Positions 1,609 to 29,041 of a stretch of 59,930 bases of DNA are shown here, in pieces (within the stretch, counting starts at the first letter, position 1; each line of letters opens with the position of its first letter). The stretch spans positions 1 through 59,930 of the IMG/VR virus record IMGVR_UViG_3300021962_000115. One strand, given 5' to 3'. The DNA is from a virus (Duplodnaviria > Caudoviricetes). Both the position numbers and the translations under genes were made by a program. A model generated the notes under the pieces. That model had not been told where the DNA came from, ran no database searches, and was given only the letters and a program-made list of their open reading frames with translations.

Positions 1609-1625
1609 CTTAAAACCAACAGCAA

Positions 1626-5359: not shown

Positions 5360-5517
5360 TGAAATTTAGAAACGGTTGGAATACCTACACAAAACAATGG
5401 GACAAACTTGCAATCAAGTTAAGATTCTCATTCATTGATATCTTATCTATAGAAGTAGATATATCAAGAAACTTTTATTTACTGACAGTATTTAACTTAA
5501 CTATTAAAAGCAGATAA
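5359..5517 (+). CDS. small hypothetical protein (52 aa, MKFRNGWNTY...), not in ORF track
   Basis: TAATG overlap with endolysin stop; ends at TAA 5517, 2 nt before next ATG. Confidence 0.65.
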   Translation: MKFRNGWNTYTKQWDKLAIKLRFSFIDILSIEVDISRNFYLLTVFNLTIKSR

Positions 5518-5519
5518 TC

Positions 5520-5777
5520 ATGAAAAAGGCAAAAGGACTAGCTGGTACTAAGTGCGCTCTAGAACATTCAAAAACAATGTATTCAACAGGTGGATCCATG
5601 ATTAAACCTAAATACCAAATGGGGGGTGAGTCTCAAATGACAGATCTAGGAACTCTTAAGAGAAAAATTAAAAAAGGTTTTAGAAAGGTTAAAAATGCAA
5701 TAAAAAATCCTGGAGGAGGTAGTCATACCCCTACATTCCATAAACCTAAGTGTGGAGGCCCAGGTCACTATTGTTAA
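5520..5777 (+). CDS. small basic protein with xxxGG motifs
   Basis: 85 aa Lys-rich; YSTGG and YQMGG motifs. Confidence 0.6.
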   Translation: MKKAKGLAGTKCALEHSKTMYSTGGSMIKPKYQMGGESQMTDLGTLKRKIKKGFRKVKNAIKNPGGGSHTPTFHKPKCGGPGHYC

Positions 5778-5797
5778 TATAACTTAAACTACTAGAG

Positions 5798-5827
5798 TCC
5801 AGGTACTTTCAGTGCCTGGATTTTTTT
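5798..5827 (+). terminator. intrinsic terminator
   Basis: TCCAGGTACT-ttc-AGTGCCTGGA stem (one G-U pair) followed by T7. Confidence 0.85.
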
Positions 5828-5858
5828 ATTTAAACAATATACATTTAAACTTTTTTTG

Positions 5859-5866: not shown

Positions 5867-5890
5867 TTGTAAACCAATAAATTAATTATT

Positions 5891-6184
5891 ATGGAAAACC
5901 AACAAGAAAGAGAGTTGACAGCTGAAGAACTAGCTGCTCAAAAAGAACAAATGCTTCAATTTTATACTGAATCTCTACCATATTTAGAAGCACAGCTTAA
6001 GTATGAAGAAGTTCTTATGAAAATTGATGAGGTAAGATTCAAAAGAACTAATATCCAGATGCAGTATGCAATGATGGCACAAGCTCAACAAGAAGCTGAA
6101 GGAGAATTAGAAGGAGAAGATTCTGACATTGATAATCAGCCTGAAGTACCTGAACAAGGTAAGAGGAAGCTTAGAAAACAATAG
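5891..6184 (+). CDS. hypothetical acidic coiled-coil protein
   Basis: 97 aa ORF, first gene after promoter. Confidence 0.7.
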   Translation: MENQQERELTAEELAAQKEQMLQFYTESLPYLEAQLKYEEVLMKIDEVRFKRTNIQMQYAMMAQAQQEAEGELEGEDSDIDNQPEVPEQGKRKLRKQ

Positions 6185-16513: not shown

Positions 16514-16527
16514 TCTAAACTAGAAAC

Positions 16528-16556
16528 AAGGGAGGGGGAAACTCCTCCCTTTTTTT
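16528..16556 (+). terminator. intrinsic terminator after MCP
   Basis: AAGGGAGGGG-GAAA-CTCCTCCCTT hairpin with GNRA loop followed by T-run. Confidence 0.9.
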
Positions 16557-16594
16557 CTCTATATTTAACCAACAAAAAATAAAACCAACAAAAC

Positions 16595-17611
16595 ATGGAA
16601 AATTTCACAATGGTAGAAACCGGTCATGGTACCGTAAAGAAATCAGCAATTGCTGTAAGACCGTTCTTTGACAATGCAGTCTCTAATATGGGGCTAGAAA
16701 ATTATGGCTTATCTCTATATGATGGAGTTAAGCACTTTGAACAACTTGCTTGTTTAGAGCAGAATGGAGTAGTAAGATACCTTACTGGTCTAAATGAATT
16801 TGCTCCAGAAGTTAAACTTCTTAAGGGTGATGATAAAGAAGCAAGAATAAGAGAAATTAGAACAGCTGTTGCTGAACTTGAGCAAGAGTTAGCAGCTAAT
16901 GTTTTAGATATTAATGATCCTCAGTTCTGGAATCAAGTTAAATTACTTAAACCAGATAACAAAGAATTCTGGAATAGAATTAGTATATCTTGTGGTAATG
17001 AGCCTTTATTTCTAGATCCTAATGATCCTTATGATAGAATTAAACTATATGCTATTGAGGCTGGTGGTTTTTCTATTGTAGCAAAAAGTTTTGATGATGC
17101 AAGATCAAGAGCTGTTCCACCTAAGTTTTACTTAGACAAACAAGAGCAGACAGTTATTGCAAGAACTGAATACAAGAAAATGCGTAACAAAGCACTTTCT
17201 GAACTTCAGAAATTATTTGACAAAAACAGTACTAAACTATTCTATGTAGCTAAAGTAGTAGATGGTAACAGTACACAATATAGAAAGTCAACACCTAATG
17301 ATGTTATGTATGAGAATATGGACTTGTACATCAATGGAGAAGGAGTTGAAAGCAACAAAGAAAGAGCTGCAAAATCTTTCCTTGAAGCAGTAAATATGGA
17401 TATGGAAACTCTAAAAATTAAATCAATTGTAAGAGATTCCGTATTTTTTAAGTATATTATTAATAAGGCTGATGGTTACATTTACCATGCTAAGACTAAT
17501 GCTATGTTAGGTAGAAATGTGTCAGATGTAATTGAGCACTTGAAGAACCCACTCAATGAGGATGTTCTAACAGATCTCAATAAAGCCTGTGAAAAATTTT
17601 GGAATAGTTAA
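16595..17611 (+). CDS. conserved protein following MCP (crAss-like head-module gene)
   Basis: 338 aa; syntenic position directly after MCP. Confidence 0.55.
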   Translation: MENFTMVETGHGTVKKSAIAVRPFFDNAVSNMGLENYGLSLYDGVKHFEQLACLEQNGVVRYLTGLNEFAPEVKLLKGDDKEARIREIRTAVAELEQELAANVLDINDPQFWNQVKLLKPDNKEFWNRISISCGNEPLFLDPNDPYDRIKLYAIEAGGFSIVAKSFDDARSRAVPPKFYLDKQEQTVIARTEYKKMRNKALSELQKLFDKNSTKLFYVAKVVDGNSTQYRKSTPNDVMYENMDLYINGEGVESNKERAAKSFLEAVNMDMETLKIKSIVRDSVFFKYIINKADGYIYHAKTNAMLGRNVSDVIEHLKNPLNEDVLTDLNKACEKFWNS

Positions 17612-17808
17612 TGGCAACTAAAAAAACAACTAAAAGCAAAGTAAACCAGGCTGGTGTCTACACTAAGCCTGGTATGCGTAAGTCTTTATTTGAGAGAATT
17701 AAAGCTGGTACTAAAGGTGGTGACCCAGGAGAATGGTCTGCTAGAAAAGCACAACTCCTAGCTAAAGAATATAAAGCTAAAGGGGGTGGTTATAAAACTA
17801 AAAAGTAA
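17611..17808 (+). CDS. small basic protein, DUF5872-like N-terminal half
   Basis: YTKPGMR..IKAGTKGGDPGEWSARKAQLLAKEYKAKGGGY. Confidence 0.7.
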   Translation: MATKKTTKSKVNQAGVYTKPGMRKSLFERIKAGTKGGDPGEWSARKAQLLAKEYKAKGGGYKTKK

Positions 17809-22048: not shown

Positions 22049-22070
22049 TTAATTAAACATTAATAACTAG

Positions 22071-22108
22071 AAAGGGGAGAGAGAGCTTAGACTCCTCTTC
22101 CCTTTTTT
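22071..22108 (+). terminator. intrinsic terminator
   Basis: AAAGGGGAGAG...CTCTTCCCTTT stem followed by T-run. Confidence 0.8.
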
Positions 22109-22119
22109 ATTAAATTCTT

Positions 22120-22662
22120 ATGGCAAATCACGTATTAAGTTTAGAAGTTCCTACAGTAATGAACACCTGCATATTGACAGTAATGGATACTAGTCAATAT
22201 ACAGATCTTATTCCTGTAGTATGTGAGCAGTTAAATATTACTGTTCCTGGATTTCAGTATTCTGTACAGCTAGATGTTAGTGCAGGGTTTATCCAAAACA
22301 TCACAGCATGTGATCTTAATTTACAGACAGAAAACTGCGGAACAGAATATGTAGATATCCCAGATGGAATTTATATTATCAAATACAGTGTTTCTCCTAA
22401 TGATGTAGTATATGTAGAATACAATCATATGAGAATCACTAAAGCATTAAACAGATACTACAATATTCTTTGTAGATTAGATATGGCAGACTGTGATCCG
22501 CCATTTAAGATTAAACAAAAACTTGAACAACTTAATCTTATCAAAATGTATTTAGAGGCTGCTAAGTCTAAAGTAGAGTTTTGTCATGAACCTCAGAAAG
22601 GAATGACACTCTATAATTATGCTTGGAAGCTACTTAATAAAATGGATTGTATTAATTGTTAA
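22120..22662 (+). CDS. hypothetical structural protein
   Basis: 180 aa; Ig-like N-terminal part (IPDGIYIIKYSV) and helical C-terminus with Cys residues. Confidence 0.55.
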   Translation: MANHVLSLEVPTVMNTCILTVMDTSQYTDLIPVVCEQLNITVPGFQYSVQLDVSAGFIQNITACDLNLQTENCGTEYVDIPDGIYIIKYSVSPNDVVYVEYNHMRITKALNRYYNILCRLDMADCDPPFKIKQKLEQLNLIKMYLEAAKSKVEFCHEPQKGMTLYNYAWKLLNKMDCINC

Positions 22663-22681
22663 ATTCTAAAAACCAACAGCT

Positions 22682-22822
22682 ATGGCAATGTGCTCAAATT
22701 GTAAATCAAATCTTTCTTGTGGATGTCAGAAGAGAACAGCATCAGACGGAAAGTCAGTATGTACAAAATGTCAAACCTCTTATGAGGCAAAATTAAAACA
22801 AAGGAATACATTAACTAAGTAA
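22682..22822 (+). CDS. small Cys-rich zinc-finger-like protein (46 aa), not in ORF track
   Basis: MAMCSNCKSNLSCGCQKRTASDGKSVCTKCQTSY...; preceded by AAACCAACAG leader; stop 1 nt before next ATG. Confidence 0.75.
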   Translation: MAMCSNCKSNLSCGCQKRTASDGKSVCTKCQTSYEAKLKQRNTLTK

Positions 22823-22823
22823 T

Positions 22824-24707
22824 ATGTCTTTTTCTACAGCTTATTTTTCATTTGAACCTTGTTGCGGTGGTACAACATTGTATTTTGCTTTTGATGGTGA
22901 TGTAGTTGTTGAACCATCACAAGGTATCAATATATATGAAGGATCAGCTGTATTTGGTTATGACCCTATTACTGGAACATACCTTCCTTTATCAAATCAA
23001 TGTTATAAGTTAGTAAGGGGAACTGCAGGTGATGGTGGACCAATTACGGGACCTATATATGGTAGCTTACCTATGGTTCCTTCTAATACACCTAGTAACT
23101 ATACTTTTGACAGTACAACTAATTATGAGACTCCTTGTGGAGGACAAGATCCTTCTTTTGAGTGTCCTACTTGTGCCCCAGCATGTTATACTATTTATTC
23201 ATGTACAGGACAATATCCACCTCTTTCAGTATCTACTGATCTATCAGCTTATGTAAATGGCTATGCTAGCATTCAAGTTGATGCTGATTTTGGGTACTTC
23301 TGCTTCTATGTAGTAGCTTCTTCAGATTGTACTAATGCAATTGAAGTTATAGTAGATACAGAAAATCCTTGCTCATGTGACTGTGTATGCTATGAAATAC
23401 CAGAAGGCACAGCAAAACTCAGTTATATTGACTGTGATGGCAATGAAGTAAATGAACTAGTAACTGGTTATTGGAAAAATTGTTCTAAAGTATATCCGTA
23501 TACATCTCCAATGTTACAAGTTGTAACTAGTGGAGATTGTATTGATGGTCAGTGTCCAACAGAATGCTATGAACTTGTAGACTGTGAAGGGATAAGAGAT
23601 CATATTTATACTACTGCTCAATCATTATCACCAATGGCAACATTGGGTCAAACTGTTGTCATACAGGGATACGATAACTGTTGGACAGTTAGTGAAGTAG
23701 TTTCATGTGATTGTGCTATTGATGTAGTAGTTCTCCAGGTATATGATGACTGTGCTACATGTAAACCAAATCCAAACTACAAACTCACTAATTGTGATGA
23801 CTCAGGTACAATAGCTTATACTTCATCTGATCTCAGTGCTTATGTAGGACAAGTAATCCAAAGAGAACCTGATTGTCCTGGATGCTGGATTGTTGAAGAA
23901 GTAAATGGTCCTATTCCATCTGACACAGCTGTAATAGTTTCAGAAGCATTTGATGATTGTGAAGCTTGTAAATCTGTTTACTATTCACTTACAGATTGTA
24001 CAGGAACAGAAACAACAATAATTACTAACACAGATTTATCAGATTACATAGGTCAAGTAATTATTCTTGAATGGTGTCCTACTACTTGTTGGACAGTTGC
24101 TGTTTCACAAACAAGTGCTGGTTCTGGAATCCTTGGAGATATTTCAGGTGTATTCCAAGCATGTGTAGATTGTTTAGTAAGTTTTCCATGTGTATGCAAA
24201 AGAATTAAAAATCATGATACAGTTGATCATGATTATAATTATGTAGACTGCACTGGGACAGTGCAAACTATAACAATCCCAGCAGGAGTAAGGTCTGAAA
24301 GAATATGTATGGGTGTACTACTTACATCATATTCTACAGATTATGTAGAAACATTTGGAGATTGTATTGATGGAGAATGTCCTCCTCCTGTATATCCAAG
24401 AAGATCTTTAAGACCAGGGTATAATACTCCACACTGTACTACTTGGAAATATGAAGAGATATCTTGTAAAGCAGCAGAAGCACTTTACAAACAAGTTCTT
24501 GAACTTAGATATGGAATTACTAATTGTTGCCCTGAAGAAGATCAGGAGTATTTAATTAAAAAACAACTTATAGACTTAAAAGCTCTAGTCAATCCAGACT
24601 ATACTTGTGCTACTCCATCATGTGGTTGTAATACAGGATGTAACTGTGGAGGATCTTGTGGTGGTAACTGTGGTTGCAGTAGTACAGGTAGAACTTGTCA
24701 GTCTTAA
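22824..24707 (+). CDS. Cys-rich repeat protein, probably a virion surface protein
   Basis: About 54 Cys in 627 aa (hand count); four Y.L.DC......T..DLS.Y.GQV...CW.V..DC..C-type repeats; Cys/Gly-rich tail. Confidence 0.65.
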   Translation: MSFSTAYFSFEPCCGGTTLYFAFDGDVVVEPSQGINIYEGSAVFGYDPITGTYLPLSNQCYKLVRGTAGDGGPITGPIYGSLPMVPSNTPSNYTFDSTTNYETPCGGQDPSFECPTCAPACYTIYSCTGQYPPLSVSTDLSAYVNGYASIQVDADFGYFCFYVVASSDCTNAIEVIVDTENPCSCDCVCYEIPEGTAKLSYIDCDGNEVNELVTGYWKNCSKVYPYTSPMLQVVTSGDCIDGQCPTECYELVDCEGIRDHIYTTAQSLSPMATLGQTVVIQGYDNCWTVSEVVSCDCAIDVVVLQVYDDCATCKPNPNYKLTNCDDSGTIAYTSSDLSAYVGQVIQREPDCPGCWIVEEVNGPIPSDTAVIVSEAFDDCEACKSVYYSLTDCTGTETTIITNTDLSDYIGQVIILEWCPTTCWTVAVSQTSAGSGILGDISGVFQACVDCLVSFPCVCKRIKNHDTVDHDYNYVDCTGTVQTITIPAGVRSERICMGVLLTSYSTDYVETFGDCIDGECPPPVYPRRSLRPGYNTPHCTTWKYEEISCKAAEALYKQVLELRYGITNCCPEEDQEYLIKKQLIDLKALVNPDYTCATPSCGCNTGCNCGGSCGGNCGCSSTGRTCQS

Positions 24708-24740
24708 TTAATTTTTGTATATTATATTAATAGAAGAAAT

Positions 24741-26375
24741 ATGAAGCCACTAAACTATGATAACTCACCATGTAGCCCAATTTCAAGTAATTGTGTAATT
24801 TGGCAAGGACCAGATATTCCTTGTATTAAATTGTGTGCTGGTGATACTGTATCAGATGTTGTATTTAAACTTGCAACAGAACTATGTACTGTGTTAGATA
24901 CACTTAATGTAACTAACTATGATCTTTCATGTTTCAATCTAACTGCTTGTGGACCAAATGATTTTCAAGCACTTATCCAATTTTTGATTGAACAGATTTG
25001 TGCATTACAAAATCCAACAACTACAACTAATACTCTAAGTTCAACAAGTGCAGATACACTAGTAACAGTAGCCTCTTGTTTTGTAGTTGGTGGTGTAACA
25101 GTTATGACTGTTGCAGAATATGCTCAAGCAATTGGTACTAAAGTATGTTCATTAGTGTCTGAGATAGCAGCAATTCAAGCAAGCATAACAAACCTTGACG
25201 TAAGAGTAACAGCCCTAGAATCTGCTCCAGCACCAACGTTTACACTTCCTTCTATTCCTGTAGACTGTACACTTAGTGGTACAATTGTATCTCCAGGATC
25301 ATATCAAATTGATCAAGTACTGAACGCTCTTATAAATGATAGTACATATGGATACTGTGCTCTAAAGTCTGCAACTGGAGAACCAGCAGATATTTCAGCA
25401 GCAGTACTATCACAGTGTATAGCAGATGCAGATCTATCACTTACATATGGCACACAGTTCTCTATTGCATATGCTGGCTCATGGGTTACATCAGGTAGTC
25501 TTACTACTGCTGCAGATGCAATTAACAACTTATGGGTAGCAGTTTGTGATATCTATAATTATGTTAGTACATTCTCAATTAGTGTAGATAATACTGCTAC
25601 AATTAATCTTGACAATACAGGAAATGTTATTACTGCAAATATCACAGATACAGGTTGGGTAGATCTTGAAGGTTTTACTTTCTACTCAGGAGTAGCAAAA
25701 CCGCAGTGTAGAAGAATTGGAAACCAAATTCACTTTAGAGGTACTGTGTATGTACCACTAGAGAATCCATCTTCTCCTGGTTCTGTAGTTACTCTATCAT
25801 CAACTTCTGCGTATAATTCAGTAGCTGGATGTACAACATGGAGTGGTGTAGGTGGATGTTCAATTAATGCTAACGGAGCTATATCATTTAATAATGGTGG
25901 TTCTGTAATTCCAGCATCTGTAACAGCTGGGAATCTAGATAACACATATTCAAAAGCTTGGGACGTTGCTCTTAGAGCTATTGATATTGATACAGAGTAT
26001 GGAACTTGTTTAACTTCTGCTATCAGAGCTTCAATAACTTCTACTAAAGGATTAACTGTACAACTTGTTCATGATATTGAAATTACTACAACAAGAGGCT
26101 CTGGTATTCAAGGTAACTCTCCATTGAGACTTGTTACTAGTAATGTAAGAGTTGGAGAATACCTACCTAACTATTTAGGTACAGGAACAGATATACATAA
26201 TGCTCCTTCAAACGCAACTTTTCCACTACAATCAGATACATTTAATCTTACATGGCCATTTAGTTGTGATGCAGGAGATGAGAATGAAATAGGTGGATTT
26301 AACTTTAATCTTGATGGATTAGTAGCTTATGTAGATCCATGTAATACAGAAACTGGTTTTTCAGCAACATGTTAA
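24741..26375 (+). CDS. putative tail fibre/spike protein with Cys-rich N-terminus
   Basis: Short coiled coil (IAAIQASITNLDVRVTALE) and DTGWVDL..PQCRRIGNQIHFRG fibre-tip-like motif. Confidence 0.6.
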   Translation: MKPLNYDNSPCSPISSNCVIWQGPDIPCIKLCAGDTVSDVVFKLATELCTVLDTLNVTNYDLSCFNLTACGPNDFQALIQFLIEQICALQNPTTTTNTLSSTSADTLVTVASCFVVGGVTVMTVAEYAQAIGTKVCSLVSEIAAIQASITNLDVRVTALESAPAPTFTLPSIPVDCTLSGTIVSPGSYQIDQVLNALINDSTYGYCALKSATGEPADISAAVLSQCIADADLSLTYGTQFSIAYAGSWVTSGSLTTAADAINNLWVAVCDIYNYVSTFSISVDNTATINLDNTGNVITANITDTGWVDLEGFTFYSGVAKPQCRRIGNQIHFRGTVYVPLENPSSPGSVVTLSSTSAYNSVAGCTTWSGVGGCSINANGAISFNNGGSVIPASVTAGNLDNTYSKAWDVALRAIDIDTEYGTCLTSAIRASITSTKGLTVQLVHDIEITTTRGSGIQGNSPLRLVTSNVRVGEYLPNYLGTGTDIHNAPSNATFPLQSDTFNLTWPFSCDAGDENEIGGFNFNLDGLVAYVDPCNTETGFSATC

Positions 26376-26386
26376 TAATATAAAAA

Positions 26387-26623
26387 ATGGCAACAACAAA
26401 ATGTTCTAATTGTGGATGTGAGGATAGTTTCTTAACTAGTCCAGCACCATGCCCTACACCGGCAGGATGTCCAACTCCTGAACCGTGTTATACAGTTACT
26501 GATTCTCAGTGTACAATCTATACTGGACCAGACATTATGTGTGGAACAGATGTGATTGTTGCAACTAATACTAATGTCAATGATGCTCTACAAGCTATAG
26601 CAGCATATTTTTGTCAACTATAA
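26387..26623 (+). CDS. small Cys-rich protein
   Basis: 78 aa; shares the C..C.I..GPDI.C module with the N-terminus of 24741. Confidence 0.7.
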   Translation: MATTKCSNCGCEDSFLTSPAPCPTPAGCPTPEPCYTVTDSQCTIYTGPDIMCGTDVIVATNTNVNDALQAIAAYFCQL

Positions 26624-26626
26624 GAG

Positions 26627-26657
26627 GTTACAGTTTGTTGGTTTCTGTGACAACAAA
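26627..26657 (+). ncRNA. candidate structured RNA element/sRNA with loop antisense to the AAACCAACAAA leader motif
   Basis: GTTACAG-[TTTGTTGGTTT]-CTGTGAC hairpin immediately 5' of a terminator; function inferred. Confidence 0.4.
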
Positions 26658-26658
26658 G

Positions 26659-26691
26659 GCAAAGCCCCTGCACTCGCGGGGGTTTTGTTTT
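26659..26691 (+). terminator. intrinsic terminator
   Basis: GCAAAGCCCCTGC-actc-GCGGGGGTTTTGT stem with T-rich tail. Confidence 0.85.
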
Positions 26692-26696
26692 ATTAC

Positions 26697-26731
26697 TATA
26701 TTTGCTAAAGTGCATAATTTTTAGTATATTA
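26697..26731 (+). promoter_or_regulatory. tandem promoter boxes (TATATTTG at 26697; GTATATTA at 26724)
   Basis: Host-type TAnnTTTG plus the recurrent phage box upstream of ATG 26743. Confidence 0.55.
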
Positions 26732-26742
26732 ACTTATATGGT

Positions 26743-27324
26743 ATGAAAGAATTTAAGAGTCCGGACTTGACAGCCCCAAGATATAGGCCTAAAGTACATA
26801 CTATGTTGAACAAAGAGTTCTTTGATAGTTTTAGAAAGAAGTATCCAAGATACAAAGATCAAGAGAATGATCAGTTAAAGAAAATAATTAGATCCTTTAA
26901 CAACACTCTCTGGAACAAAGTAATTGATACAAGAGATGGGATGCAACTTCCTAACTCAGTTGGTTGGCTATTTATTGGAACATGTGACAATAGTAAGAAA
27001 GAGAATATTGACTATGCAAAGTCCAAAAAGTATGGAGTTAAAGTAACCAATAAAAACTGGGAAACAGATGGCAAACTTGCAAAGATCTTTTTTACAAGCT
27101 TTGCTCTCAAACATAAGATGAAGAATAGAGAACTATGGAAGTTTGTAGCAAATAGAGATTTTAAAAGAGCAGTTGCAAAATCATACCCTGTAAATTGGAA
27201 TACATATATTGTAGTTGATCCTACAAAAAAACTAAGACTAGAAAGTAGAAAACAATATTATAAAGGTGTTCTTTTAAAACAACAAACTGCTGGTTTAAAA
27301 GACTATAATGAATTTGATCTATGA
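26743..27324 (+). CDS. HU/IHF-like protein heading the tail module
   Basis: Helical N-terminus then GMQLPNSVGWLFI; an IHF-like gene precedes tail ring genes in crAss-like phages. Confidence 0.5.
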   Translation: MKEFKSPDLTAPRYRPKVHTMLNKEFFDSFRKKYPRYKDQENDQLKKIIRSFNNTLWNKVIDTRDGMQLPNSVGWLFIGTCDNSKKENIDYAKSKKYGVKVTNKNWETDGKLAKIFFTSFALKHKMKNRELWKFVANRDFKRAVAKSYPVNWNTYIVVDPTKKLRLESRKQYYKGVLLKQQTAGLKDYNEFDL

Positions 27325-27983
27325 CCACAATTGGAGAAGCAATCTCAAGAGTAAGAAATACTCTAAAAGCTGTAAAGGAAGATCCATTCTTAACAGATAG
27401 AACAATTTACTTTCTATTAACTAAGTATGGACAGACTCTTCTTAAAAGAGAAGATAACCAATTTAGACTTATGAAAATAAGCTCTATATTTCAAGTACTA
27501 CCCTATATTGAACTAATTGATGTAGATAAAGTAGAGGCTGGATGTGTTGGTGTATACTCAGGTTGCTACTTCAAAAGATCAAAAGAAAAACTACCAACTA
27601 TACTTGATGGTATCTTTGGACCAATTATACGTACTGTATCTTCAATTGATGGAAGCATAGAAATGTTTAGAACAGATCCCGGCACATGGGTATCTATGAC
27701 TAAGACCACTACATTTAAATACAATAAAAATAAATACTTCTGGTACCTTAACGGTTATTTATATGCTCCTAATGTAGATTGGGAAGCTGTAAGAATGGAA
27801 GCTATTTTTGAAGGGCAGGCAGATACATGTACTACAGATGACTGTCTTGTAAAACAAGATCAACCATTACCATTTCCAGAATACTTATTTTCTGAAATTG
27901 AACAGTATGTGGTAAAAGAATTAACCATATCAATGCAGGTTCCCCAAGATCCTTCAGATGATAGTCAAAATATACTTAGATAA
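27321..27983 (+). CDS. putative tail ring/tubular protein
   Basis: 220 aa; YFWYLNGYLY and C-terminal FP..L..IEQYV pattern; syntenic with crAss-like ring genes. Confidence 0.6.
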   Translation: MTTIGEAISRVRNTLKAVKEDPFLTDRTIYFLLTKYGQTLLKREDNQFRLMKISSIFQVLPYIELIDVDKVEAGCVGVYSGCYFKRSKEKLPTILDGIFGPIIRTVSSIDGSIEMFRTDPGTWVSMTKTTTFKYNKNKYFWYLNGYLYAPNVDWEAVRMEAIFEGQADTCTTDDCLVKQDQPLPFPEYLFSEIEQYVVKELTISMQVPQDPSDDSQNILR

Positions 27984-29041
27984 TGGACTTCAATTACACC
28001 TTAAAATATAGAACCTTTGATCAACTCTTAGAAGATGTAACTGTTGACCTAAATACTTTTGCTCTTGAAAATATGATAGAGCCTCAACAGTTGATTAAAC
28101 TTGTTAAGAAGATTAACTATGATCTTGGTCTAAGAATTAATCAAACAAGAGAAGTTATTTTAGATGTCTGTCATGGTAAGGTAAAACTTCCTGATGACTT
28201 CTATACTTTTAACTTTGCATTTATCTGTGGTGAATTTACAGAACATGTAGGTTATAATGGTTGGGTTGGTGGAACTAACATACAAGAAGTTCCATATGTG
28301 GAAACACCATCTACGGTTGATGTTTGTGCTCCTGCAACAATAAACTGCTCTGTGTGCAATGCAAATCCATGTAACCATACTGCAGCATGTCCAGACAATA
28401 CATGTCCCACTACATGCACTCCTAGTGCTATCCCTACGGCATATGATCCATTAAATCCTTATGGTGATACTTGTACTAGACCAAGAGTATTTATGAACTG
28501 TAAAGGAGATAAATATGAACTTGTTCAAGTTATAAATAGCGCAGGTACTACAAGAACATATTCAGAACTACTTCCATTAAGAATGAGAGCAAGTGAGAAT
28601 ATAGAATGTGATTGTCCTAATTTATATTGGAATGCACCCAATGAGGGTTGGATTAAAGGAGGTTATCTTTTTACAACTTTTGAAACAGGAAAAGTATATT
28701 TAAACTATCAGGGTCAGATGGAAGATGAAGATGGTAATCTTTTAGTTCCAGATCATGATCTGATTAATGAATACTATGAGTATGCTCTCAAGTCAAGAAT
28801 TTTAGAAAATCTTTACATGAATGGTGAAGATGTAGCACAAAGAATGCAGCTTATTGAGCAGAGACTTAAGTCTGCTAGAAATAATGCTCTTAGTGTTGTG
28901 AATACTCCAAACTTTAAAGAGATGGCACAAGTATGGTGGGCAAATAGAAAAGCTATGTATGGTAAATATTACTATATGTTCTCAAGCTATTCACCAAACA
29001 ATAAATACATCAATTCAGCATACAATAGAAGAGTAATGTAA
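27983..29041 (+). CDS. putative tail ring protein with Cys-rich insertion
   Basis: KVKLPDDF and TTFETGKVYLNY..DEDGNLLVPD motifs; central Cys/Pro/Thr-rich insert. Confidence 0.6.
   Translation: MDFNYTLKYRTFDQLLEDVTVDLNTFALENMIEPQQLIKLVKKINYDLGLRINQTREVILDVCHGKVKLPDDFYTFNFAFICGEFTEHVGYNGWVGGTNIQEVPYVETPSTVDVCAPATINCSVCNANPCNHTAACPDNTCPTTCTPSAIPTAYDPLNPYGDTCTRPRVFMNCKGDKYELVQVINSAGTTRTYSELLPLRMRASENIECDCPNLYWNAPNEGWIKGGYLFTTFETGKVYLNYQGQMEDEDGNLLVPDHDLINEYYEYALKSRILENLYMNGEDVAQRMQLIEQRLKSARNNALSVVNTPNFKEMAQVWWANRKAMYGKYYYMFSSYSPNNKYINSAYNRRVM

Follow-up and report, generated by a model that had tools for sequence, protein, structure and literature searches.

The genome of a crAss-like phage carries, at the 3' end of one of its operons, a short hairpin that we confirmed to be a real, strongly conserved, single-copy structure of the + strand. 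It is a new, strongly conserved structured RNA motif of a large clade of marine crAss-like phages, a clade that is very abundant (more than 3000 capsid clusters). The hairpin lies in a 59,930-base virus record with 34% G+C (the window, meaning the whole stretch of DNA that was analysed), and its loop core is complementary to AACCAAC(A), a motif found at the start of several operon-leading genes. As to its role, the hairpin may present, from the 3'UTR, an anti-leader loop that base-pairs with the leaders of phage mRNAs, either in cis or in trans, a proposal that we put forward tentatively and at somewhat less than an even chance.

Among the gene products of the window are a terminase, a portal and a crAss-type major capsid protein (MCP; PHROGs, with PF23898 on capsid relatives), together with crAss tail ring proteins 1 and 2 (Pfam) and several giant proteins. 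A simple selection for non-overlapping ORFs left 45, of which 44 are on the + strand. The portal matched only crAss-like and related phages, at 32.5% identity or less, and for the capsid protein more than 3000 related clusters were found at E <= 1e-10, ocean surveys being the source of some. When the phage collection was searched by blastn with positions 24000-29000 and by tblastn with the 193-aa protein encoded downstream of the hairpin, no matches were obtained. Pfam and PHROGs gave no match for the 193-, 78-, 46-, 338-, 421-, 544-, 627- and 730-aa proteins, and among the neighbouring proteins they returned only tail ring proteins 1/2 and virion structural families. The gene starts are without Shine-Dalgarno sites, and TAnnTTTG-like boxes are present in several intergenic regions. 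We infer a Bacteroidota host, which fits Shine-Dalgarno-less starts and TAnnTTTG boxes as described in passages of PMC7366714.

Several other properties of the window were noted on inspection. The stretches 17610-17807, 1460-1600 and 5360-5519, taken as intergenic, look coding; near 17610 there is a basic ORF of about 65 aa whose ATG overlaps the stop of the 338-aa gene, and short ORFs also precede 1626. Strong terminator-like hairpins with U-tracts were seen at 16514-16560 (before the AACCAACA-led 338-aa gene), at 22049-22119 (before the gene at 22120) and at 5778-5830 (after the gene at 5520), and the module appears to be divided into several terminator-bounded units.

The hairpin follows a 78-aa ORF at 26387-26623, whose stop codon was read at 26621-23, and the features assigned around it are as follows.

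26627..26633, + strand: 5' arm of the hairpin, GTTACAG, from the sequence and RNA folding, with 99.8% of stem cells paired in 59 relatives
26634..26644, + strand: 11-nt loop TTTGTTGGTTT, with a core TTGTTGGTT that does not vary within the main clade and recurs in two others
26645..26651, + strand: 3' arm of the hairpin, CTGTGAC, from the sequence, RNA folding and pairing in relatives
26651..26657, + strand: CAACAAA flank, partner of 26634-40 in an alternative helix, with 'AAC' near-invariant in the main clade only
26656..26691, + strand: intrinsic terminator with an A-tract extension, a GC core at 26663-26681 and a U-tract to 26691, from the fold
26697..26730, + strand: promoter-like block of the 193-aa gene, with TATATTTG at 26697-26704, TTGCTA at 26702-07, a 17-nt spacer and TATATT at 26725-30

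The sequence-only reading had placed a 7-bp stem with an 11-nt loop between the stop of the ORF at 26387 and a strong terminator, and both the sequence and RNA folding confirmed this arrangement. The stem has seven pairs, one of them a T-G (G-U) wobble. It begins 4 nt past the stop codon (26623), and the flank CAACAAAGG separates it from the terminator, so that hairpin and terminator make up a predicted module of about 65 nt that ends at, and shares, the intrinsic terminator of the parental mRNA. Folding returned exactly two hairpins (-32.1 kcal/mol, z -4.9, with 0 of 200 shuffles as good). The one at 26663-81, with the core CCCCTGC/GCGGGGG, agrees together with its U-tract with the definition of an intrinsic (Rho-independent) terminator, and it is absent from the list produced by a simple terminator scan of the window. 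The hairpin at 26627-51 falls outside that definition, having an 11-nt loop and being followed by AACAAAGG instead of a U-tract. The loop core is exposed, with an unpaired probability of 0.98 in the window and a mean of 0.85 over the relatives (above 0.8 in 47 of 59 sequences), and the YUNR-like tetranucleotides UUUG and UUGG can be read within the loop. An H-type pseudoknot between the loop and the CAACAAA flank was ruled out on reading the sequence, as no linker is available to span the 7-bp stem.

Relatives were gathered through the downstream 193-aa protein, the upstream 544-aa protein and the exact loop string, and 59 distinct sequences were aligned (alignment A2), with the loci L008, L085 and L105 excluded as cut by contig ends. 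The hairpin, the terminator and the promoter block were present in every relative with an intact region, which amounts to about 60 distinct sequences. In A2, where 99.8% of the stem cells pair, two of the seven stem pairs are constant and four change on a single side. The pair 12/35 occurs as U-G in 25 sequences, U-A in 19 and C-G in 15, never as C-A, and the remaining variable stem pairs alternate A-U or G-C with G-U. When changes were counted against the commonest pair, both-sided changes were found in none of the seven hairpin pairs and in three pairs of the terminator helix, and covariation support for the hairpin within the main clade is moderate. In one relative (L175), G-C and U-G changes in the stem preserve the pairing. 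Read on the minus strand, or in a DNA cruciform, the G-U combinations of the stem become A-C mismatches, and for this reason the structure is one of + strand RNA or of single-stranded DNA.

The loop core is invariant across the main clade, and 1-nt indels occur in the loop, which rules out coding. The idea that the site is the leader or promoter of a minus-strand gene was rejected, since a stop is met within 4 codons, the TAnnTTTG box is absent on reading, the loop carries indels and the long ORFs are on the + strand but for one. Single copy number was indicated by a covariance model, which gave one strong match per main-clade genome (four searched, 62.9-97.4 bits) and no further convincing match over 705 kb. 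In a scan with the loop string, the stemmed matches share one context among the distinct contexts in the 80 listed loci of at least 117 stretches.

Similarity among the relatives begins at the 5' base of the hairpin, and the coding sequence upstream varies widely. There is no conserved promoter upstream of the hairpin, since the upstream genes differ between relatives, and the distance from hairpin to terminator is always 4-12 nt. In three relatives (L170, L172 and L198), an ORF of about 270 aa is placed between the terminator and the 193-aa gene and the hairpin remains with the terminator, which indicates that it belongs to the 3' end of the upstream operon. The inserted ORF, at about locus positions 650-1470, carries its own small hairpin between the two promoter boxes. 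It was also observed that the genes upstream (window 24741-26623) differ strongly among the close relatives L001-L236, with the hairpin-terminator as a fixed boundary, and this boundary could be the recombination junction of a variable, perhaps host-recognition, cassette. The promoter-like block on the other side (TATATT(A)) is kept in all of L001-L236. Passages of 10.1101/2020.03.07.982082 report tripartite middle promoters in phage phi14:2, including upstream of g070 and g075, and the arrangement TTGCTA-17-TATATT resembles these two upstream regions in outline.

Loci of more distant clades were reached via capsid representatives, and three other clades were found to carry different stems, two of them keeping the loop core UUGUUGGUU. 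In G014, G016, L479 and L480, whose capsid protein is 81-84% identical to that of the window and whose homologue of the 193-aa protein is 45% identical, the element reads GUCUGAAG-UUUUGUUGGUUUU-CUUCUGAC followed by a terminator, with the same loop core and one U-U mismatch in the stem. The stem is identical in these four although the terminators differ, and folding returned the hairpin GUCUGAAG/CUUCUGAC for L479 and a competing helix for G014. The element of G012 (capsid 57%) is UGGUG-UUGUUGGUUC-CAUCA with the loop core kept, and that of G011 (capsid 47%) is CAGAG-AGUGGUUCC-CUCUG with a terminator in the same place and a partly diverged loop. That UUGUUGGUU recurs on unrelated stems is the best indication that function may reside in the loop sequence.

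Leader motif and hairpin co-occur in the main clade, in the G014 clade and in G012, and hairpin and loop were kept in all relatives that retain the motif. For phi14:2, a crAss-like phage of Cellulophaga that is only distantly related, the structural half was read: AACCAAC precedes none of its annotated gene starts, and the 13 inter-gene gaps examined showed no loop copy with a stem. This absence agrees weakly with the co-occurrence. The covariance model gave only weak matches on five incomplete contigs of the 81-84% MCP clade, and the hairpin region probably lies outside them. The homologues of the 193-aa protein from G011 and G012 recovered only themselves as queries, and a deeper alignment (A5) was too divergent for a scan.

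The sequence-only reading had proposed an Rfam search, which failed to place the element: Rfam 15 gave no match at gathering thresholds over the whole window, and a permissive search of 26560-26760 gave rnk_pseudo at 32.2 bits (threshold 55) and BSnc120 at 26.3 bits (threshold 114) as the best hits, all of them driven by the terminator. In the openly accessible literature on the promoters and transcription starts of crAss-like phages and on phage-encoded or UTR-derived sRNAs, no described regulatory RNA of crAss-like phages was found.

The complement of the loop core, AACCAAC(A), stands at five operon-leading genes of the window (1626, 5891, 13602, 16595 and 22682), with 0-5 nt between its end and the ATG, and it is likewise found at the homologous genes of three related genomes (G001, G003 and G005). 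The copies around these starts are listed below.

1613..1621, + strand: leader copy AAACCAACA of the 730-aa gene, with 4 nt between it and the ATG
5871..5881, + strand: leader copy AAACCAATAAA before the 97-aa gene, G-U compatible with the loop
5896-5906, + strand: second copy at the 97-aa gene, just after the ATG
13590-98 and 13608-18, + strand: two copies flanking the ATG of the 421-aa gene, from a sequence scan
16566-76 and 16582-92, + strand: tandem copies before the 338-aa gene, that at 16582-92 exact over 11 nt
22670..22678, + strand: leader copy ahead of the 46-aa Cys-rich ORF (22682-22819) that opens the hairpin-ending operon

The earlier claim that the loop is the perfect reverse complement of the copy at 16582 held over all 11 nt. 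Its list of partial copies was also borne out, those at 1613, 13590 and 22670 matching over nine nucleotides (as AAACCAACA) and those at 5896, 13608 and 16566 with one mismatch. At up to one mismatch, the loop is the sole minus-strand match to AAACCAACAAA in the window; on the + strand the exact copy is that at 16582, and one-mismatch copies are at 5871, 5896, 9046, 13608, 16566, 17349, 27276, 32758 and 44822. Altogether 11 matches to AAACCAACAAA were counted against 3.4 +/- 2.2 expected, and one of 100 shuffles reached 11. A first-order Markov model predicts 0.018 occurrences of TTTGTTGGTTT per window strand. For AACCAACA it predicts 1.8 in the window, where 11 were seen, and 0.045 in the listed intergenic DNA (1481 nt), where five were seen.

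In the interval -30..-1, both in the window and in G001, G003 and G005, AACCAAC and ACCAACA rank among the 7-mers with the highest enrichment. Loop complements of at least 7 nt occur at 4.4-11.1 per kb in the interval -25..+9 and at 0.54-0.96 per kb in gene bodies, that is, 7-12 times denser near starts. Of the best 13 duplex windows, seven are no more than 30 nt from a start codon and six fall inside genes, and the loop/leader duplex is short and A/U-rich (-11 to -12.8 kcal/mol). With respect to the promoters, in two window leaders the motif is preceded, at 4-5 nt, by the end of a TATATTTG box (5 nt before AACCAACA in the leader at 1613), and a TATATTTA box abuts the motif in a third, so the motif may be nearly the whole 5' leader.

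Among orthologues of the 338-aa gene, both tandem copies are kept in most rows of highest protein identity (53-93% over a 60-aa N-terminal query). Most rows of lower identity, including loci of the 81-84% MCP clade, have AAACCAAAC repeats as leaders; in that clade (L358-L400 and others) the leader of the 338-aa gene is mostly AAACCAAAC in two or three tandem repeats, and a different motif, TTAACCC(Y)TAAA, recurs before the capsid gene. The AACCAAC leader is an unexplained start-site signal.

The proposed antisense role would operate as follows. The 3' untranslated end of the operon 22682-26623 would display the invariant loop UUUGUUGGUUU, followed by the terminator of the operon, and the loop would serve as an antisense seed for AACCAAC(A) in the very short 5' leaders of several operon-leading genes, in two cases also covering the first codons. 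Such pairing would make the start region inaccessible to the ribosome or alter mRNA decay, and the output of the AACCAAC-led genes would thereby be coupled to the amount of hairpin transcript. Action could be in trans, with either the intact mRNA or a 3' fragment processed from it as the active RNA, or in cis on the leader of the same operon at 22670. Production of a stable RNA, pairing of its loop with the leaders and the direction of the effect are thus presumed steps of this scheme. A search for RNA sequencing runs that cover 22600-27400 returned none. In the window and in G001, G003 and G005, the hairpin-ending operon also starts with the motif (22670), and from the gene spacing we infer 22670-26691 to be one transcript. 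The same operon was noted to start and end with small Cys-rich ORFs of 46 aa (22682-22819) and 78 aa (26387-26623), which both begin MA..CSNC and have no family match.

The sequence-only reading had suggested a 3'-UTR-derived sRNA or a 3'-to-5' mRNA contact. The position of the hairpin in the 3'UTR, the accessibility of the loop and the complementary motif at start codons fit this part of the suggestion, and the expected covariation of seed and targets was absent. In L159, L160 and L165 the loop is UUAGUUGGUUU and the genomes keep AACCAACAA leaders, which leaves 8 contiguous pairs. The complement of the G011 loop AGUGGUUCC is found at one of 179 starts, and its density is 0.16 per kb near starts, below the 0.21 per kb of gene bodies; complements of the window type are mildly enriched in G011 (2.3 against 0.84 per kb). 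The loop variants in these four genomes are thus unmatched by changes in the leaders. Furthermore, the AAACCAAAC leaders of most members of the 81-84% MCP clade would leave about 7 nt of pairing with an unchanged loop. In multi-target antisense RNAs, the seed is usually more conserved than the individual targets, but this does not count as a positive argument for the pairing.

Another explanation, which we consider rather doubtful, is that the hairpin is a recognition site for a phage or host protein acting in termination or read-through, 3'-end processing or mRNA stability, and that the complementarity to the leaders is incidental or reflects composition (A/C-rich against U/G-rich). Several of the observations above agree with it: the hairpin always stands 4-12 nt before the terminator and moves along with it when a gene is inserted downstream, its location is the border between an operon and a conserved promoter block, and the loop fails to track changes in the leaders. 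An invariant loop on changing stems is as much expected of a protein-binding site as of an antisense seed. However, an exact 8-11 nt complement of the most start-enriched motif would be expected only 0.02 times in the intergenic DNA of the window, and the search for a candidate binding protein nearby with Pfam and PHROGs gave only tail ring proteins. In addition, the hairpin and the terminator stem do not overlap, so that an obvious antiterminator fold is absent.

We also considered a role at the level of DNA, in which the duplex AACCAACA would be bound by a factor that also recognizes the promoter-side leaders, or in which a strand-specific single-stranded DNA hairpin would function in replication or packaging. 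The element is single-copy and intergenic, and in three of the five window leaders the motif abuts a TAnnTTTG-like box or trails it by 4-5 nt and so overlaps the likely transcription start. Against this, the spacing of the motif is fixed to the ATG (0-5 nt) and not to the promoter box (0-12 nt), and copies are also found just after the ATG (5896 and 13608). The stem pairs via G-U, which is mismatched in duplex DNA symmetry and on the other strand, and this pattern makes a DNA-level role less likely; we regard it as improbable.

It is very improbable that the loop mimics or competes with a host RNA contacted by the leader motif, such as a UGUUGGUU-like segment of rRNA, or targets host mRNAs, the hairpin then being a decoy or a host-directed regulator. 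The motif does keep a fixed distance to the start codon, as a ribosome-contact element would in a host group that passages of PMC7366714 describe as lacking Shine-Dalgarno sites. However, the hairpin string had six matches in representative bacterial genomes, none with the stem, and these chance matches gave no clue to the host. Finally, a hairpin arisen by chance, for example as a spacer before the terminator, is scarcely credible: the stem is short, but about 60 distinct sequences conserve it beside diverged neighbour genes and while identity of the 193-aa protein drops to 51%, and the loop core is kept in the G012 clade at 57% MCP identity, the loop of G011 (47%) being diverged.

Returning to the antisense reading, the sequence-only reading had added a mutually exclusive helix between TTTGTTG (26634-40) and CAACAAA (26651-57) that would hide the seed, and this was sustained in one sub-clade and failed in the clade of the window. 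The pairing exists in the window and is predicted to be minor: 35% of 200 shuffles of the flank fold as well, in window-type relatives a fraction of 0.27-0.8 of the shuffled flanks do as well, and on the alignment only 4 invariant pairs remain. As a conserved switch it was therefore rejected for the window clade. In the CUGUGGC-UAACAA sub-clade, which carries an inserted U (L014, L016-L023, L025-L031, L151 and L175), a helix of 9-10 bp between UUGUUGGUU and GGCUAACAA is predicted at -7.6 to -8.5 kcal/mol, as stable as the main hairpin at -7.0 to -7.7 kcal/mol, and a fraction of only 0.00-0.09 of the shuffles reach it. The flank GGCUAACAA of this sub-clade resembles a G-U-tolerant copy of the leader, which hints that the pairing capacity of the loop may be used there.

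When these observations are read jointly, the AACCAAC(A) leader might be a private start-site code in place of Shine-Dalgarno sites, and the loop of the single late-operon hairpin might be the antisense governor of all those leaders, setting the timing or ratio of structural-protein synthesis, with the pseudo-leader GGCUAACAA hiding the seed as a switch in one sub-clade. We offer this combined picture as speculation that is on the whole unlikely to hold in full. If the pairing is true, it would show how a virus of Shine-Dalgarno-less hosts marks and co-regulates its highly expressed genes, and it would provide Bacteroidota genetics with a seed/leader pair that is compact and portable. Should the pairing be wrong, the hairpin is still a new, strongly constrained structured RNA motif with a putative bound ligand.

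Several known systems can be compared with the element. The boxB hairpin of phage lambda has a 5-bp stem with a GNRA-like pentaloop, is accompanied by boxA and lies downstream of a promoter. The present element shares with it, and with the nut sites, a small size, a conserved loop, a phage origin and proximity to a terminator, but it has a 7-bp stem and an 11-nt U/G loop and stands immediately before the terminator. A boxA-like conserved partner was not found in the alignment, and the element falls outside the definition of a lambda N/boxB-type site.

Antisense regulators that present their seed in a loop include the c4 RNA of phages P1 and P7, plasmid CopA and RNA I, and the Firmicutes sRNAs with UCCC loops (RsaE), and c4 acts on targets in the phage's own transcripts. 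In these systems, as proposed here, a hairpin loop bears the complement and one seed can serve several targets that share a ribosome-site motif. The present element differs from them in that it has no sequence or structural homology to them, a separate promoter was not found for it, and its 11-nt seed is A/U-rich where theirs are C-rich loops.

Base-pairing sRNAs derived from 3'UTRs are exemplified by CpxQ, DapZ and SroC. Passages of PMC7366714 define this class by the terminator shared with the parental mRNA, and they describe the sRNA GibS, which pairs with translation initiation regions, and Bacteroidetes mRNAs without Shine-Dalgarno sites. The present element resembles the class in its position in the 3'UTR with a shared terminator, in a conserved, accessible seed just upstream of that terminator and complementary to start regions, and in conservation that starts abruptly in the 3'UTR. 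It departs from the class in the absent seed-target covariation, and it is a viral element predicted from sequence, in a host group where Hfq and ProQ homologues are not obvious according to passages of PMC7366714.

In icaR of Staphylococcus aureus, as described in PMC3868564, base pairing takes place between a motif in the 3'UTR and the ribosome site of that same mRNA. The likeness would lie in a 3'UTR motif complementary to the start of the same mRNA, since the operon described here, taken as one transcript, starts with the AACCAACA leader at 22670. The same source gives icaR an anti-Shine-Dalgarno UCCCCUG motif, a long 3'UTR and an involvement of RNase III, whereas the present motif is held in a hairpin loop, faces a non-Shine-Dalgarno leader common to at least five phage operon-leading genes and is known from sequence only. 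The element is a member of no described family, and we suggest that its nearest counterparts in mechanism may be the icaR contact, the 3'UTR-derived sRNAs and the c4 RNA of P1, a placement by analogy that we make with reserve.
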